The position numbers were made by a program, and so were the translations under genes. 64,000 nt of DNA, from positions 192,634,001-192,698,000 of the forward strand of contig OZ024742.1 of the NCBI GenBank assembly GCA_964016885.1, given 5' to 3'. This DNA comes from Eledone cirrhosa (lineage: Eukaryota). This document shows, one piece after another, positions 6,942-62,012 of this stretch. Every line of letters starts with the position of its first letter. Within the stretch, counting starts at the first letter, position 1. Under the pieces are notes generated by a model, which was not told where the DNA came from, searched no databases, and saw only the letters and a program-made list of their open reading frames with translations.

Positions 6942-9900
6942 AATGGAAAAATTTGAACCGGAACAAAACAGAGAGGCAATACAACGAATGTTTATTAATT
7001 TCACGCTCTGGAGAGTGGGGTGGTGGTGGGGAACGACATTTCGGGCATAAGCCCTTCCTCAGGTGAGAAGTGTGTGGGAACAGAGTTCAAAGGGTGTGTA
7101 GGGAGAGGAATCAGGAAGCTGAGGGTGTGAATATGTGGTGGAAAGCACGTGTGTGTGGGGTTTAAGCGTGTTGTGGGTGTAGGTGGCGTGTGGGAGAAAA
7201 AACATTTTTTGGTGTGTGTGTGGGCGAGTTATATAGGTGATTCCGTAAGAGGATGGTTGAAATGTTGGTAAATTCCTATGATGTTTAGTAGATTCCGTGG
7301 TGGTCAAGTTCCACATACGAGTATTCCATGAAGAGATGGTCGGAAGAGGAGAGATGTGGGGTGCGCGTGCAACAGGAAGTGGTCAAGCGGTGGGAGTGCT
7401 GTGTGTCTGTATGTGCTGGGAGGTGGTCACAGGGCATAGCAGCAGTCAGGTGGAATGATAAAGGGGCGAGGATGGGTAGGTGTGAAAGTTGGAGTGAGGA
7501 GGGTGTGTGTGTGTATTAGTGGAGGTGTTAGTGGGATGAGTGAGTGTGGAGCGAGGGTGTGGGTGGAGCGGGGAGAGAAGGGTGTGTGTAGTTCTATGGA
7601 GGGAGTGTGGTGTACTGGTGTGTGTGTAGTTTGATGAAGGGGGTGTTATTGGGTGTTAGTATACGGGAGGATGGGAAAGGGTTGAATGCAGGTGTGAGTG
7701 GGGGTTAGTGGTGGTAGGGTGTGTAGAGTTGGTGGTGTACGAGGGTGTGTGGGTACGTGTGCGTGGGGTTGGGGGGTGTTAGTGATGTTAGTTGAGTGTG
7801 GGGTGGGTGGTGTAAGTGGGTGCGTGTGTTCGTGTGCTTGGGGTCAGGGGGGTGTTTTTGAGGTTAGTTGCGGGGTGGTGGGATGGAGGTGTGGGGGTGA
7901 GGGTTAGTGGTGGTAGTAGGGTGTATGTTTAGTGTGAGCGCGTGTAGATATGTGCCGGTGGGTGTGTGCGTGTGATAAGGAGGAGGGGGGAGGAGAAGAA
8001 GGGAAGGATGTTAGTATGTTAGTTGGGGAAGGGTGGTCGGATGAGAGGTGGAGTGGAGGTGTAAGAATTGTTAGTTGTGGGGTGGGCGGTGAAAAGGAGG
8101 GGTGTGTTAGTGGTGTTAGTGGGGGATAAGTGTGTGGAGGGGGGGGGTGTCGAAGGCTAAGGAATAAGGGTGGGGAGTTCAGGCCGGGGGGAGTGTGGGT
8201 CTGTAAGATGAAGATAGTTCTTTGTTCGACTCTAAGGCGATTGGCGGGTGTTCCGTGGCATTGGAGTAGGCCACAGACTGTGAGATGGCGTGCGGAATGT
8301 CCAGGGCCACCAAAGTGGCGGGCGATGGGGGAACTACCACCGAGACGAATATCCCGGAGGTGCTCAGTGAATCGGTCCGCCAGGCGACGTCCCGTCTGTC
8401 CGACAGAGAGAGGGTGGCCGTTAGGACCCTGGAAGGTGGTGGTGTTGGTGATGTGGGGACAGGTGTTGCAGCGGGGCCTAGAACAGGGAAAGGAACCGGG
8501 GGTGGAAACAGAGCGTGGGTTGGGGGTAGGGAGGTGTGGAGGAGGAGGGTGCGGAGATTTCGCTTGCGTTTGAAGGATGGGGTGGGGTTGGGAAGACGTG
8601 GGAGGTGGAGGGGTTGGACTGGAGGCGTCGGAAGAGGCGGCGGATGGTGCGGTGGAGGGGTAAGGTGGAGGGGTGGTAGGTGATGGGGAAGGGGAGACGG
8701 TGGGTGGGTGTGCGGTGGTGGGGTGAGGGTGGTGGAGCGGTGGACAGCACGGGCGCGGGTGAGAGCGGTGTGGACGAGAGAGAGGGGGGGGGGGGGTTAA
8801 CCTCTGCGGATGAAATGGCTGACTAGGGAAAGGGCCTGGGACTCGAAGTCAGCATCTCGGCTACAGAGGCGGCGGATCCTGAGGAGTTGGGAGTAGGGAA
8901 TGGAGTGTTTAGTGTGGGTGGGGTGGGAAGAGGTGAAGTCGAGGTAAGAGTGGGAGTCGGTGAGTTTGAAGAAGGCGGAGGTGACGAAAGAGTGGTGGGA
9001 GGGGTCGAAGGCGACGGAGATGTCTAAGAAGTGGACGTGGGTGGTGGAGATAGAGGTGGTGAAGTGGAGGGAGGGGTGGAAGGAGCAGAAGAAGGAGATA
9101 AAGGAGTCGAGCTGTTCTCGGGTGAGGGTCGTGGCTCCGATACAGTCGTCAATGTAACGACCGTACAGTTCGGGCGTAGGGCCGGTGTACTGGGCAAAGA
9201 TTTGGGCCTCAACATGGCCAACAAAAAGGTTGGCATAGATCGGGCCCATTCTTGTGCCCATGGCTACCCCCGTGACCTGTTGGTAAAACTCACCCGAGAA
9301 GGAGAAACAATTGAGGGTGAGGACCAGCTCGGCGAGGCGAAGGAGGGTGGGGGGTGGAGGGATTTGGGGGAGGGGCGAAGATCGAGGTAGTGTTTGAGGG
9401 CGCGTAGGCCGTCGGCGTGGGGATGACGGTATAGAGGGACTTGATGTCTAGGGTGAAGAGGAAGGGCTGTGGGCCGGGTGGGTAGGTGAAGGAGTCGAAA
9501 AGGCGCAGGGCGTGGTTGGTGTCGGAGATGTGGGAGGGGAGGGTGGTGACAAGGGGGGCGAGGATGGAGTCGAGAAAGGCGGAGATGAGTTCGGTGGGGA
9601 AGTTGCAAGCGGAGACGATGGGGCGGCCGGGGTTTGTCGGGTTTGGGGAGTTTGGGGAGGAAGTAGATGGTGGGTTTGCGGGGTGTGCGGACGATGAGGT
9701 GGGAAGCGGTGGGGGGGGGGGAGGCGAAAAGGTCTTGGATGGTGGAGGAGACTTGTTGTTGGTAGAGGAGGGTGGGATCGGAGGGTAGACGGCCTTAGAA
9801 GAGGGGGTTACAGAGCTGCCTGAGGGCTTCGGCCGTGTAGAGGTCCGCGCGCCACACCAATACGGCGCCTCCCTTGTCCGCCGGTTTGATGACGATGTCA

Positions 9901-10241
9901 TCTCGGCTACGGAGGGAGCGGAGAGCGAGGAGTTCGCCCCGTGAGATATTGTACCGTTTGGAACGGTGGCGGAAGTCGAAACGATTTACTGCGCTACGGC
10001 TGGCATCGACGAACGCGTCCAGGGTGCTAAATTGCCCTGGGGCCGGCATCCAAGAAGATGGTCGTCGGCCCAGGGCGAGAAACGGGTCTGGGGGTATGGT
10101 TGCAAGAAGTGGTGGGGTTGGGGTGTGTGTGGGGGGGAGGGAGGGTGTGGTGAGGGTGGAGGTGGAGGGTGGAGATTGTGTAGGGGTGTGGGTCGAGGGT
10201 GGGCGTGTGGGGATGGGCGGGTGGTGGTGGATGGGGTAGGC

Positions 10242-14934: not shown

Positions 14935-15244
14935 TATATATATATATACATACAAAAATATAAAAATATATAAACGCACACACACATATAAATACATAAA
15001 CACACATATACATACATAGCTAAACAATTATACACATGCAAATACGTATATATCAAAAGAACGCACAACCAAATACAAACACACACACATACACACACAC
15101 ACCCACACACACACCCACACATACATAAAAATAAATAAATACGCACGCACACATATACATACATACACATACATATACACATATATACATATACATATAT
15201 ACATATATACATATACATATATATATATATGTATATATGTATAT

Positions 15245-17305
15245 ATGTATATATGTATATTAAGAACTATAAACAAATCTAAGAGCAGAATCCCTAGAAA
15301 TAGAAAAACGCTCATCAGAAAAATTAAGAGAACGAACAAAAAAATCAACAAGCTGAAATACTGTCAGCAGCAACACATCAACTTGACTGCCATTTCATCA
15401 CTAGAGATTAAAAAACATAACCTCCAAAACAACATAATGTCCCTCATCAACAATCAGAGAAGAGCTGAAGAGGCCTGGGCCATTGAGAAGATCAAACTCA
15501 ATCCCAAAGTGTTCTTTTCATTTGCAAAAAAACACAAAATCACTGGCTCTACTGTTGGCCCTCTAATTGATGAAAATGGCACTCTTCAAGACAATGCTAA
15601 AACCATGGGTGAGATACTGCAGAAACAATACTGCTCTGTTTTCAGCAATCCTGATATGGCCGATCTGGGCTGTATCGACGATGTTACTCCCCATTACACC
15701 TTATCGGACATAACGTTTGGCGCCCCTGATGTCTTGGCGGCAATAAAGGAAATCAAGCATAATTCAGCAGTAGGTCCCGATAGGTTCCCTGCTTGTGGCT
15801 TGAAGGCGTGTCAACACCAACTTGCATCTCCTCTTGCCAATCTGTGGCGGAACTCACTGGATGCTGGATATGTGCCAGAAAACCTTCTATCCCAGTCTGT
15901 TGTCCCAGTTTTCAAAAGGGGAAACAAATCCCTTGCCGTGAATTACCGTCCAATCTCACTCACCTCTCATATCATTAAGGTATTTGAGCGAGTGGTGAGA
16001 TCGCGAATGACCCACTTCCTTGAGAGTAACAATATGCTGAACTCCAACCAGCATGGATTCCGTAATGGAAGGGATTGCCTGACGCAGCTACTGCATCACT
16101 TTGATGACATTTTGAGAGCCTTGGGAGAGGGTGCCAACACTGATGTTATCTACCTTGATTTCAGCAAGGCCTTTGACAGGGTTGATCATAACATTCTACT
16201 GCGAAAGCTGTCCAATATTGGTGTCACTGGAAAGCTGCTGCAGTGGATCAAGAGCTTCCTGTCAAACAGAACCCAACATGTTGTAGTTGAGGGAGTCAAA
16301 TCAAGCCCAGCCAAAGTCAGTAGTGGGGTCCCACAAGGCACTGTGTTGGGCCCACTTCTCTTCATCATCTATATTAATGACATCACTGACATCATCAAAC
16401 ACAGCAACATTAAAATTTTCGCTGATGATTCCAAGCTCCAAAAGGTCATCAATGGCGTGGATGACCGGATAAGCCTTCAGTCAGACCTACTGGCTGTTAC
16501 CCAATGGGCAGAAAAGAACAACATGTTACTGAACGAAGACAAATTCGAACTGATCCACTTTGGAAAAGAGGATGCTCTGAAACTCCCGTACTCCCTTCCC
16601 TCCGGGGAAACTCTCGTGGCATCTAACAACATCAGAGACTTGGGAGTAACCGTGGACAGCAACATAAGCTGGACCACGCATATAAGCAGCAAAGTTGACA
16701 TGGCCCGCAGAATGTGTTCCTGGATCCTCAGAACCTTCCAGTCGAGAGATTCCCGCACCATTATCCTTCTCTTCTCTACTTTCGCCCGACCACACCTTGA
16801 ATACTGTTGTCCACTGTGGTCTCCCCACACGAAACAAAGTATCATGAAACTTGAAGCTCCTCAAAGGGCAATCACGAAAAAGATAGATGGCATGTCAGAC
16901 CTTGACTACTGGGGTCGATTAGAAAACCTGAAACTTTACTCACTCCAACGTCGCCGTGAGCGTTATATTATCTGCATGATGTGGAAAATGTTCCATCATC
17001 ACTGCCCAAATGATGTTGGCATCGCCTTCAAGATACACCCAAGGCTTGGGCCCCGTGCTATCCGTCCCATTCAAAAATCTAAATCGCAACTCATAACAAA
17101 AATACGGCACAATTATTTCACCTCAATCGGCCCTGCTCTCTTCAACATCACACCAGGACACGTCAAAACAGAAACTGACCACACAAAATTCAAGAAGTCT
17201 TTGGACAAATTCCTCCAAGTAATCCCGGACAAACCACCCACACCCGGATATGTCTCCGCAAACAGTAATTCTCTTCTCGAATGGGCCATGGTGCCCAAAT
17301 CCTGA
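15245..17305 (+). CDS. LINE ORF2 reverse transcriptase (CR1-like), N-terminally truncated; the ATG lies in the flanking microsatellite
   Basis: NYRPISLTSHIIKVFER, QHGFR, YLDFSKAFDRVDH, SGVPQGTVLGPLLF, FADD, DLGV, RPHLEYCCPLWSP, RLENLKLYSLQRRRER. Confidence 0.9.
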   Translation: MYICILRTINKSKSRIPRNRKTLIRKIKRTNKKINKLKYCQQQHINLTAISSLEIKKHNLQNNIMSLINNQRRAEEAWAIEKIKLNPKVFFSFAKKHKITGSTVGPLIDENGTLQDNAKTMGEILQKQYCSVFSNPDMADLGCIDDVTPHYTLSDITFGAPDVLAAIKEIKHNSAVGPDRFPACGLKACQHQLASPLANLWRNSLDAGYVPENLLSQSVVPVFKRGNKSLAVNYRPISLTSHIIKVFERVVRSRMTHFLESNNMLNSNQHGFRNGRDCLTQLLHHFDDILRALGEGANTDVIYLDFSKAFDRVDHNILLRKLSNIGVTGKLLQWIKSFLSNRTQHVVVEGVKSSPAKVSSGVPQGTVLGPLLFIIYINDITDIIKHSNIKIFADDSKLQKVINGVDDRISLQSDLLAVTQWAEKNNMLLNEDKFELIHFGKEDALKLPYSLPSGETLVASNNIRDLGVTVDSNISWTTHISSKVDMARRMCSWILRTFQSRDSRTIILLFSTFARPHLEYCCPLWSPHTKQSIMKLEAPQRAITKKIDGMSDLDYWGRLENLKLYSLQRRRERYIICMMWKMFHHHCPNDVGIAFKIHPRLGPRAIRPIQKSKSQLITKIRHNYFTSIGPALFNITPGHVKTETDHTKFKKSLDKFLQVIPDKPPTPGYVSANSNSLLEWAMVPKS

Positions 17306-19325: not shown

Positions 19326-20652
19326 AGGAGAAGGTAAAATATAAGGGGAGGTATGGGAGAAAAAAATATATAATAAATGTAAGTATACAAGAGTACAGAA
19401 CGTAGAAACAGTAAAATAAAAACCGTAGCAGAAGTAAAGAGCGGAAAAGTTCAAGGCGGTTGATTTCTCATAGGAGTGTCAATCCAGTTACAGATCAGGT
19501 GCGGTCTCAGATGAGGACAGCATCTGAAGATCTCAGTCTTTGAATTAAGGCAAGCGGAAGTGTCTCTCAAGTTTAGCAAAATCCTATACTTTTCTGTGGT
19601 ACACAAAGAACAATTCTTTGTGCCCCTTTGGTACTCCCTCGAATGGTCTAATATACACCAATCAATAGAGTACGGGATGTTACTATCCTTGAGTTCCCAC
19701 ACCATACTTGCGAGGGCCGTTGATGTTAGTTTATCGGGGTGCTTAAAAGAAGCGACATGTGAGTAAAATCTGGTTTTAAACCTGTCCTGGGTCATACCGA
19801 CATATCGCTCACTCCTGGCTGGCTGGTTGTTGATTACTGGTGTTATCGTAGCCTCATAAACGACAGATTTAGTGTTACATCTACCCTGCAATGGGCATTC
19901 GTCCGGCTTCCTGCAACTGCATCCTTGATTTATTCTCGTCCGGTTTGAGCTGGTGATTTTGGACTTCATAGATGGGCAACAAGAGTAGCTGATCTTGACT
20001 ACGTTCCTATTAAATATCTTATAGTATCTATGATTAGGAGGAAAATGTTTGTCTAATAGTTCAAGGAATTTCCTTCCTACATTAGTTTTGACAGTTAGAG
20101 AGAAGGGGGGGGGGGGTGAACCAAATAATCTTCCTTTTCCTGTTATTGTGGTTAGTTTTAGGGGGGGGGGGGGGGTAGGTAAATAAGACATTTTTTCTGT
20201 AAAACCGCTGTTCTTAAGGGCTTTATTATAATAAGGGGCGGCTTTATTAAAAATGTCTATAGACGAAGATAAGGTAGAAATCCTACAGCTAATGTTAGGA
20301 ATAAGATTATTAAAAACTATAGGGGGATGGCAAGACTCTTTGTGTATATACCTAAGATTTTCGTTAGGTTTATGGTAGGGTTTAAAAGAGGCAGTAAGTA
20401 AATCAAGATTAATATCAAGAAAGTTAGCATTAGTAAGGTTCGTATCTATAGTAATTTTAAGGTTAAGATTAGCAAAAGTATTGATTAAATCTTTACGGAA
20501 TTTATCAAGGTCATGGCCGTTGGTGGTATGAGAAACTGCTAATCCGTCATCACGGTATAAACCGATATTATGGGACGGAAATTTCTCTTTGAGGGTTTGG
20601 AGAAGGAACAATCCAACTAAGTCACACACATCCGCACTGTCATATGAACCCA
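19326..20652 (-). mobile_element. Penelope-like element, Naiad-type, 5'-truncated (partial RT + GIY-YIG; ORF 19451-20653)
   Basis: [66 protein letters not shown]...YVGMT..FKTRFYSH, CSLCTTEK, LNSKTEIFRCCPH. Confidence 0.9.
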
Positions 20653-20686
20653 TATATATATATATATATATATGGGTTCATATGAC

Positions 20687-60690: not shown

Positions 60691-60777
60691 TTTAATATCA
60701 GAACAAGTTAGAAAAGAGTGACAGTCGTTTTAAAAGACATGTTCTGAAAGAACTGAACAATCCTATATATATATATA

Positions 60778-61157
60778 TAGGAAAATGTATGACCCAAACG
60801 GCAGAGCTCAAGCCGTTTCGACGGCTATTTCTGGACTAAATAAGAATTTTTAGCGTGGTAAATAAATAGCCGAACTATTCAAGAGGTAATTCGTTATATG
60901 GGAAGATTCTATTTGTCAAGAGGATTGGTCAAAATTTCTTGGCAACTACAATCTTCCCATATAAGGAATTACCCCTTGAAAAGTTCGGCTATTTATATAC
61001 CACGCTAAAAATTTTAATTTAGTCCAGAAATAGCCGTCGAAACGGCTTGAGATCTGCTGTCGGGGTCATACAGTTTCCTATTGCCCACTCTACTACCCTA
61101 AGTATTGAGTACTCTGGTGCATTATGGTCCATCTGGTTCCTTACCACAACTCTTTGT

Positions 61158-61158
<1 letters not shown>
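60778..61158. mobile_element. Longest family A fold-back (~130-bp diverged arms) containing the complete HHR
   Basis: Arms ~60778-60909 / ~60950-61082 plus the family A tail; (TA)n flanks. Confidence 0.85.
60971..61066 (+). ncRNA. Type I HHR with a U3:A8 core (family A)
   Basis: ACCCC-TTGAAAA-GTTCGGCTATTT...AAATAGCCGTC-GAAA-CGGC..GCTG-TC-GGGGT. Confidence 0.72.
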
Positions 61159-61188
<30 letters not shown>

Positions 61189-61278
61189 TTATAAGCTCTC
61201 ACCGTATTTTAGACTAAAGAAATTTCTAGCCTGATAGTGGGGTTTATAACCCTCGGAGAAATGGACAAAGATGAGTGT

Positions 61279-61349
61279 TGCAGTACATGGGAGTCGAACC
61301 CACATCTTTGGTTATCCAGACCACTGTGCTACCATTACACCAATACACA
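61279..61349 (-). tRNA. tRNA-like (Gln-like D-arm) pseudo-tRNA module
   Basis: Reverse complement of 61740-61810 with one difference. Confidence 0.55.
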
Positions 61350-61739
61350 TCCCGTCTCCTTCCATTCGAATTAGAAGCTATGAACTTAGCAAGTGAATGA
61401 TAAACAAGCAAATTATAAATGTAAACATGTAAGTATGTTTTTGAAACGGTGCGCGAGTTTGAAAATTAGAAATTAGGAATTATAAGCCTTCACCGTATTT
61501 TAGACTAAAGAAATTTCTAGCCTGATAGTGGGGTTTATAACCCTCGGAGAAATGGAAAAAGATGAAAAGATGAAATTTCTTTAGTCTAAAATACGGTGAA
61601 AGCTTATAATTTCTAATTTCTAATTTTCAAACTCGCGCACCGTTTCAAAAACATACTTACATGTTTACATTTATAATTTGCTTGTTTATCATTCACTTGC
61701 TAAGTTCATAGCTTCTAATTCGAATGGAAGGAGACGGGA

Positions 61740-61810
61740 TGTGTATTGGTGTAATGGTAGCACAGTGGTCTGGATAACCAAAGATGTGGGTTCGACTCCC
61801 ATGTACGGCA
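61740..61810 (+). tRNA. tRNA-like (Gln-like D-arm) pseudo-tRNA module
   Basis: A-box TGGTGTAATGG, D-arm GTGT/GCAC, TGGT-CTGGATA-ACCA arm, T-arm GTGGG-TTCGACT-CCCAT; weak acceptor stem. Confidence 0.55.
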
Positions 61811-61971
61811 ACACTCATCTTTTTCCATTTCTCCGAGGGTTATAAACCCCACTATCAGGCTAGAAATTTCTTTAGTCTAAAATACGGTGAAAGCTTATAA
61901 TTTCTAATTTCTAATTTTCAAACTCGCGTACCGTTTCAAAAACATATTTACATGTTTACATTTATAATTTG

Positions 61972-62012
<41 letters not shown>

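Follow-up and report, generated by a model that had tools for sequence, protein, structure and literature searches.

A young, multi-copy 291-bp repeat with a tRNA-Gln-like module, very probably mobilised by a Penelope-like enzyme, whose copies break off in dependence on A58

The window, that is, the whole stretch of 64,000 nucleotides analysed here, comes from a 3.0-Gb animal genome assembly in which TA microsatellites are plentiful. At 61158-62007 it carries two arms of a 291-bp unit, joined head to head and lying beside a mini-insertion of a Penelope-like element (PLE). The features are the following, unit positions 1-291 designating window 61572-61862, the reference unit of the plus arm:

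60777-61159: neighbouring head-to-head mini-insertion, pLTR and tail of a Hydra-clade PLE
61158..61180: left (TA)n target tract
61181..61565, minus strand: left arm, 385 nt or 1.32 units, from its 5' end at unit 244 through a full unit to its 3' end at unit 46
61566..61571: 6-nt filler at the head-to-head junction, duplicating the letters just before it
61572..61975, plus strand: right arm, 1.39 units, 5' end at unit 1 and 3' end at unit 112-113
61909..61975, plus strand: PLE-type tail of 60-67 nt, from the short to the long 3' end
61976..62007: right (TA)n target tract

These measurements, with a period of 291 bp, agree with a preliminary description of the locus, which had seen about 1.3 units on the minus strand joined to about 1.4 on the plus strand, in different registers and flanked by (TA)n: the 5' ends lie at unit 244 and unit 1, respectively, and both outer arm ends sit in (TA)n. 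The left arm ends at the site designated here as short, and the right arm at the long one, where the BLAST match overruns by 5 nt into the TA tract. The two arms differ from each other by about 2%, and no open reading frame of 200 codons overlaps the element. One sample provided no DNA contig bridging the junction, which gives no verdict either way. In a run with another organism label (X4), one contig of 158 nt is identical at 144 bases and a partial match covers 35 nt.

The element is a real, young, multi-copy, non-coding repeat. That it might be single-copy, a possibility raised at the outset, is dispelled by 177 matches from 40 of 1,368 candidates, the full-length matches of the unit in these 40 being 92-100% identical. 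A marker 19-mer of subfamily A, to which the window element belongs, has at least 1,487 exact matches in the genome; subfamilies B and C have a common 20-mer with 4,164 matches, and the older subfamily D, with T at tRNA position 58 (T58), has 336 matches of its own marker. Subfamilies A, B and C consist of short tandem non-coding units of 291, about 269 and about 260 nt, respectively, with an identity of about 85% between the units of A and B, and some arrays exceed 5 units. Two sets of loci were examined. For subfamily A, a marker near the 3' part was used and the first 100 listed places, all on contig C1, were taken; 68 loci were retained, the omissions being nine duplicates, one listed place (C1:176641553), a mixed locus (L143) and L215, which is the edge of a subfamily-C array. 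For subfamily D, 66 loci were obtained through a 3' marker from the first 70-odd listed places.

Haplotypes within loci agree: 3 of 106 pairs are discordant at unit 98 (52.9 expected if independent) and 0 of 62 at unit 200 (16.6 expected if independent), so that a single RNA or a single source gave rise to both arms of a locus. Rare variants shared by different rounds fit rolling-circle copying, later duplication or conversion alike. A T-to-G change at unit 6 recurs independently of locus in 21 of 196 copies, and a mirror A-to-C change affects unit 3 in 6 of 191; the reading of the former as a circularisation scar was dropped in view of this mirror change and because unit 3-8 (window 61574-61579) lies in the loop of a conserved hairpin. 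One locus (L231, G000:C1:131457500-131467400) is an array of about 6 kb made of diverged 260-nt subfamily-C units, ending with the normal tail and TA, and preceded by an inverted arm. Loci L275, L288, L293 and L299 make up a further, older T58 group, in which L275 retains the extra D-loop base of tRNA-Gln.

Each full unit contains a tRNA-like module, around which a larger fold can be drawn:

61279..61351, minus strand: tRNA-Gln-derived cloverleaf, copy 1 (ARAGORN)
61738..61810, plus strand: tRNA-Gln-derived cloverleaf, copy 2 (ARAGORN), the module being placed at 61740..61810
61747-61757, plus strand: A box
61789-61799, plus strand: B box
61723..61737, plus strand: 5' strand of the outer stem, an extension of the acceptor stem
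61813..61829, plus strand: 3' strand of the outer stem, including a T5 run
61820-61824, plus strand: T5 run, candidate Pol III terminator, 10 nt after the module
61884..61934, plus strand: stem pairing 61884-61890 with 61928-61934, with one U-A/C-G compensatory pair

The mid-unit module with A and B boxes, proposed in the preliminary description, was found by both ARAGORN and Rfam in each arm, with an Rfam tRNA score of 38 bits against a gathering score of 29. Judged by its sequence it is derived from tRNA-Gln, with 44-48 identities in 73-75 columns to the tRNA-Gln genes of the same genome; more than 20 such genes are clustered in tandem repeats at G000:C1:168.21-168.28 Mb (L252-L273). A functional tRNA gene is ruled out by the anticodon loop, which varies between and within subfamilies and has T at position 37. 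The acceptor stem has its full 7 bp in subfamilies B and C, where an outer stem of as many as 17 bp prolongs it, and is shifted in subfamily A. The outer stem, also part of the initial proposal, holds up across 22 copies from three subfamilies, with 95.5% of cells paired in helix 1, 83.8% in helix 2, and G-U/A-U exchanges. Given the position of the T5 run after the module, Pol III would need to read through it to make a usable template; subfamily D has spread with an altered B-box base. Further downstream, the stem at 61884..61934 encloses GAAAGCTTA and the short 3' end sites (unit 39/46/53). A 55-pair fold model leaves 93.6% of cells paired in the 22 copies, against 43-48% for slid controls. 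Support for it is modest, since the model was drawn from the same sequences and only two pairs change on both sides, a number matched by 167 of 500 shuffles; folding of the whole unit is no better than that of shuffles (z -0.32).

The ends of the insertions point to the enzyme that made them. Among the 68 subfamily A loci, 40 are head-to-head, none is tail-to-tail and 28 have a single orientation. One short 3' end (unit 22-56) is paired with one long end (unit 104-121) in 34 of the 40 head-to-head loci; short ends cluster mostly at unit 46 and 53, long ends lie about 60 nt further, and subfamily D likewise has two classes of 3' ends. TA flanks the insertion on both sides in 51 of the 68 loci and on one side in 15; as regards target-site duplications, the flanks are themselves TA tracts. 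An assembly fold-back, which had been considered as a trivial explanation of the inverted arms, does not account for a layout that recurs at 40 independent loci. According to PMC8557442, PLE insertions include a 5'-truncated copy in inverted orientation and have a tail at one end, and a PLE enzyme is described as priming reverse transcription on both target strands from two internal RNA sites (PMC11167929); the end geometry of the window family is what would be expected of such an enzyme extending both target strands from two RNA sites. The tandem and inverted arms, the tail at one end and the microsatellite targeting are all marks of a non-autonomous PLE derivative. Mobilisation of the 291-bp element by a PLE enzyme, already suggested in the preliminary description, is thus strongly indicated by two fixed 3' ends, head-to-head arms and TA targets, and we regard it as very probable.

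At their 5' ends, the copies have a second regularity, which lies within the T arm of the module:

61795, plus strand: A58 (unit 224)
61795..61807, plus strand: family-wide 5' break-off zone (unit 224-236, peak at 229-230)

The window locus itself reads through this zone. By automatic call, 35 of the 77 subfamily A arms that reach unit 236 end within these 13 nt, against a background of 23 of 100 arms stopping over the preceding 66 nt (binomial P 8e-27 for the excess at 224-236). The upstream limit of the stops is at 224-225 (A58 and C59), with no arm ending at 218-223. Curation of the junctions raised the total to 47 of 77: 11 calls at 200-209 proved to be fold-back palindromes on CATG 229-232 that the aligner had over-extended, and a call at unit 220 was re-read as a stop at 224. 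Subfamilies B and C repeat the break-off (23 of 39 arms, 16 of 26 loci). Of arms in their second round along the unit, 0 of 5 were scored as stopping, which counts against the reading; one of the five, L208, is a stop on inspection. Subfamily D provides a natural control, as it has T at 58 and G at 59 and retains the T-stem, CATG and GTAC. When one rule is applied to both sets, 37 of 83 subfamily A arms stop compared with 7 of 65 in D (P=9e-6), or 32 of 61 loci compared with 7 of 53 (P=1e-5); this comparison is conservative, some subfamily A fold-backs being miscounted as read-through. The contrast is stronger with the curated counts (47/77 versus 7/65, P=4e-10) and weaker with automatic counts on both sides (35/77 versus 13/60, P=0.004). 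The break-off depends on A58.

What the arms do beyond A58 bears on the form of the template. Only 3 of 22 such arms stop at the tRNA leader (unit 146-170), a rate of 0.55% per nt that is near background, and the others go on through the spacer into further units. The missing excess at the leader indicates that the template is not a Pol III monomer whose start lies at the closest tRNA head. An RNA that is circular, multimeric, or terminally redundant and copied with template jumps would fit in each case.

Methylated A58 (m1A58) is an established stop for reverse transcriptase (PMC8599865), and we infer that the break-off is probably caused by m1A58 blocking reverse transcription. The preliminary description had suggested that the RNA is possibly processed by tRNA-processing enzymes. 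The A58-dependent stop does make it appear that the host treats the RNA as a tRNA; RNase P/Z-type cutting as the main route is not supported, since the peak at 229-230 lies in the T arm and the tRNA ends are at about 169 and 240. Several observations count against methylation. The commonest 5' end falls short of A58 by five to six bases and only four arms end at 224-225, so that trimming has to be assumed; read-through copies show 1% change at A58, that is, no misincorporation. As for the control, two bases, 58 and 59, are changed in subfamily D, whose greater age also means that a different enzyme may have copied it, and because A58 also holds the T-loop fold, the contrast would fit methylation, folding, protein binding or cleavage alike.

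Taking these points together, the reading we favour, and hold to be rather probable, is that the element is a circular or multimeric RNA passenger copied by a PLE enzyme, and that its tRNA-Gln-derived fold probably receives a host methyl group at A58, where copying would then stop. What is observed is that the copies are young and dispersed, that they sit in TA targets, that two-armed loci combine a long with a short end, and that about half of the arms extending to the tRNA end at unit 224-236, a tendency that the T58 subfamily has for the most part lost. The enzyme would nick both target strands and start reverse transcription at unit 46-53 and at about 113, by extension from PMC11167929. 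Arrest by m1A58 would occur at C59, and the arrested end would be trimmed back to the nearest AT or CATG microhomology before joining. Promoter boxes would then survive only in read-through arrays, which would seed new copies. A broader proposition, that there exists a class of ribozyme-free tRNA-mimic circular RNAs riding on PLE enzymes, with a tRNA-Gln head and a Hydra-clade pLTR whose hammerhead has decayed, restricted by the host tRNA methyltransferase through a block of reverse transcription at m1A58, and with one lineage escaping through a change of A58, is one we put forward tentatively and with more doubt than confidence; if true, thousands of genomic junctions record germline RNA methylation.

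An alternative that keeps the PLE passenger and changes only the origin of the break-off is that the T loop of each tRNA mimic is cut by a host nuclease, so that the stop is a real RNA 5' end, or that a protein bound at the elbow blocks the enzyme. The footprint expected from it is identical, as is the need for an intact T loop; it also accommodates the absence of misincorporation at A58 in read-through copies, and would supply unit-length RNAs, through a T-loop cut, to units in which no hammerhead core is found, which comes near to the idea in the preliminary description. Against it, the RNase P/Z sites are minor (3 arms at unit 240 and 2 at 238-239, one of the latter belonging to the second round), the longer outer stem produces no comparable stop (23 over 66 nt), and the limit at 224-225 matches A58 exactly. 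We consider this explanation unlikely, though to be taken seriously.

The stop might also reflect nothing more than a bias in joining, CATG, GTAC and AT at unit 229-235 favouring fold-back and annealing to TA. The majority of junctions do use CATG/GTAC/AT microhomologies, and smaller clusters occur at other palindromes (unit 288-11 and 90-95); however, few stops are found at TATA 270-273 and at other AT/TA sites, and subfamily D, which keeps the T-stem and the same palindromes, yet rarely stops. Joining bias alone is therefore not the explanation, and we judge it improbable.

A conventional tRNA SINE mobilised by a LINE, or else a satellite expanding at the DNA level, with the inversion arising later or from assembly, is refuted as the main route by the end geometry, and its probability overall appears very small. 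The tRNA-derived A and B boxes and the fixed 3' ends would suit such an origin, and DNA-level duplication does occur, as in L020 with its identical alternate units and in the diverged array of about 6 kb at L231. Yet membership of the tRNA SINEs (SINE2) had to be rejected, as the tRNA head is not at the 5' end and the 3 of 22 arms noted above are the few whose 5' ends fall there, and neither process matches two 3' ends, long paired with short and never tail to tail, nor the difference of about 2% between the window arms and the repeated layout at 40 loci.

Whether such a passenger carries a ribozyme was examined next to the module, where two features are relevant:

61833..61849, plus strand: possible hammerhead-core vestige, CCGAGG (CTGAGG in subfamily C)
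61857..61878, plus strand: conserved hairpin, whose 3' strand is the 'core' of the preliminary description

The hammerhead scaffold first drawn does not stand. The CTTTAGT taken for its core forms the 3' strand of a hairpin that subfamilies A-C retain, with 98.4% of cells paired; the proposed stem I arm, TAGAAATT, is missing from subfamily B; and among the first 100 rows of a search with 2,835 matches, 94 have GATA in place of its GAAA, a trait of a large subfamily. In the genome, 0 matches join a canonical core to the stems III and I that had been drawn. CUGANGA is present on neither strand of one circularised unit each of subfamilies A, B and C, and no Rfam ribozyme family appears in 73 matches at E<=10. 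A pattern of stem I plus core gave 165 matches, of which 20 were examined, all unrelated; twister, pistol and HDV-like folds were dropped by eye against consensus structures. The absence of a canonical core thus suggests, as the preliminary description had supposed, that the element has no working hammerhead. The possible vestige at 61833..61849, which overlaps a 5-bp hairpin with a variable loop, implies a register other than that first drawn, with an old core at unit 262-268, where 38 subfamily-C copies read CUGAGGA and no stem I is visible. The hammerhead would be, at most, such a vestige.

The source of the 3' half may lie next door. A type I hammerhead is predicted in the neighbouring Hydra-clade pLTR. 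It has a GUC site and a core of the U3-A8 type, a variant reported previously (PMC4209133), and its stem II is long and ends in a hairpin resembled by that at 61857..61878. For the neighbouring element there are 4,339 candidates, and its short and long ends differ by about 77 nt; the organisation pLTR-ORF-pLTR is found in L437, and CxCX5C, CxxC and CxH motifs in L436 and L438. Subfamily A gives a weak local score of 42.5 with this pLTR, compared to 28.4 +/- 4.2 for shuffles (reached by 5 of 500) and up to 38 for other PLE ends; the match, first spotted by eye, is reached by 30 of 500 shuffles for subfamily C and 103 of 500 for B. A motif derived from this alignment gives 56 matches in the genome, 29 in that pLTR, 26 in the element family and 1 elsewhere, with 0 for the control. 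On this evidence we incline to the view that the 3' half descends from such a Hydra-clade pLTR. A clearly shared 3' end with a partner was found neither in 50 GIY-YIG loci nor in 30 loci of a young Hydra-like family; the Hydra-clade PLE, whose tail is unlike that of the element, is the sole lead to a partner and a tentative one.

A true retrozyme with an active non-canonical ribozyme (CYGAGG core, long stem II, palindromic GAAAGCU stem III, acting as a dimer) seems scarcely credible: 38 of 70 matches of a CUGANGA...GAAAG pattern are subfamily-C copies, and the order and spacing of the region are similar to those of the Hydra pLTR hammerhead, but no stem I is seen, the majority core has G at position 9, subfamilies A and B have C at position 4 and B has GATA for GAAA, and 5' ends show no accumulation at unit 36, where the cut would fall.

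If the passenger reading holds, the element may by analogy work like a non-LTR retrozyme or like Sm-alpha, without the ribozyme. The schistosome Sm-alpha and Sj-alpha repeats are likewise short tandem units with a Pol III-type promoter away from the RNA 5' end. Sm-alpha is tRNA-Gln-like, accounting for 2,342 of 2,368 predicted tRNA-Gln-TTG genes (PMC2770079), and its Pol III promoter is described as relying on tandem copies (PMC2770079, PMC6765202); tRNA-Gln-like A and B boxes inside a tandem unit are found here too. In contrast to Sm-alpha, the 291-bp element has no apparent working hammerhead; it has a full cloverleaf on a long outer stem, as well as the PLE end geometry, and shows an A58-dependent break-off that goes unmentioned in the available parts of the Sm-alpha accounts. 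Animal non-LTR retrozymes, proposed to be non-autonomous PLE derivatives, share the size of about 300 nt and the non-coding tandem structure (PMC7229834; bioRxiv 10.64898/2026.07.22.740005). As presented in the sections available, their defining feature is that every unit has a type I hammerhead, which is absent here, whereas the 291-bp element carries a tRNA module and its circular RNA is a candidate.

With PLEs and their derivatives (PMC8557442, PMC11167929), the element shares tandem and inverted arms, a tail at one end, (TA)n targets and two initiation sites; it differs in a tail of 60-67 nt as against the 30-40 nt given in those reports, in its tRNA module and in a sequence link to the autonomous Hydra-clade pLTR that is weak. 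The TRIMp3 elements Cassandra, Helenus and Ajax, as described in PMC10886601, are also terminally repeated non-autonomous retroelements with an internal Pol III promoter derived from a small RNA, and template jumps on terminally redundant RNA are reported there for Cassandra; they depend on LTR retrotransposons (LTRs, primer-binding site, TSD), whereas the 291-bp element bears PLE marks, and membership was rejected because its arrays are pure unit repeats with PLE-type ends. The retroviral m1A58 strong stop, according to PMC8599865, equally arrests reverse transcriptase at tRNA A58; there the tRNA is the primer, while here it would be a mimic inside the template and the stop would truncate the element. 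A search by title and start of abstract, with Repbase, Dfam and subscription journals outside its scope, returned no paper on a tRNA-bearing, ribozyme-free PLE passenger, and an Octopus repeat annotation gives class totals only in the part available (PMC13282606).

If the methylation reading is true, a routine tRNA modification brakes a retroelement, DNA alone suffices to read this, and the A58-to-T change serves as a natural control. Moreover, the family provides a substrate of 260-290 nt for studying how PLE enzymes select their two initiation sites and produce head-to-head insertions, bears on whether short PLE passengers require a hammerhead at all, and links Sm-alpha, retrozymes and TRIMs with Pol III promoters.

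Other mobile elements were encountered along the way. Palindromic mini-elements of about 100 bp in (TA)n (L032, L037, L039, L041 and L049) belong to another PLE-type family and have a canonical hammerhead core at the loop. A 408-codon frame at window 19451-20677 (minus strand) belongs to the young Hydra-like PLE family, the second of the two, which shares 33% identity over 187 aa with the first; many of its copies have open frames of about 714 codons, and the 3' ends inspected contain no hammerhead core. The window further includes a broken PLE-like RT-GIY-YIG element at 7904-9985 (minus strand) and, at 15020-17305 (plus strand), a 761-codon LINE-type RT frame (RVT_1, 108 bits).
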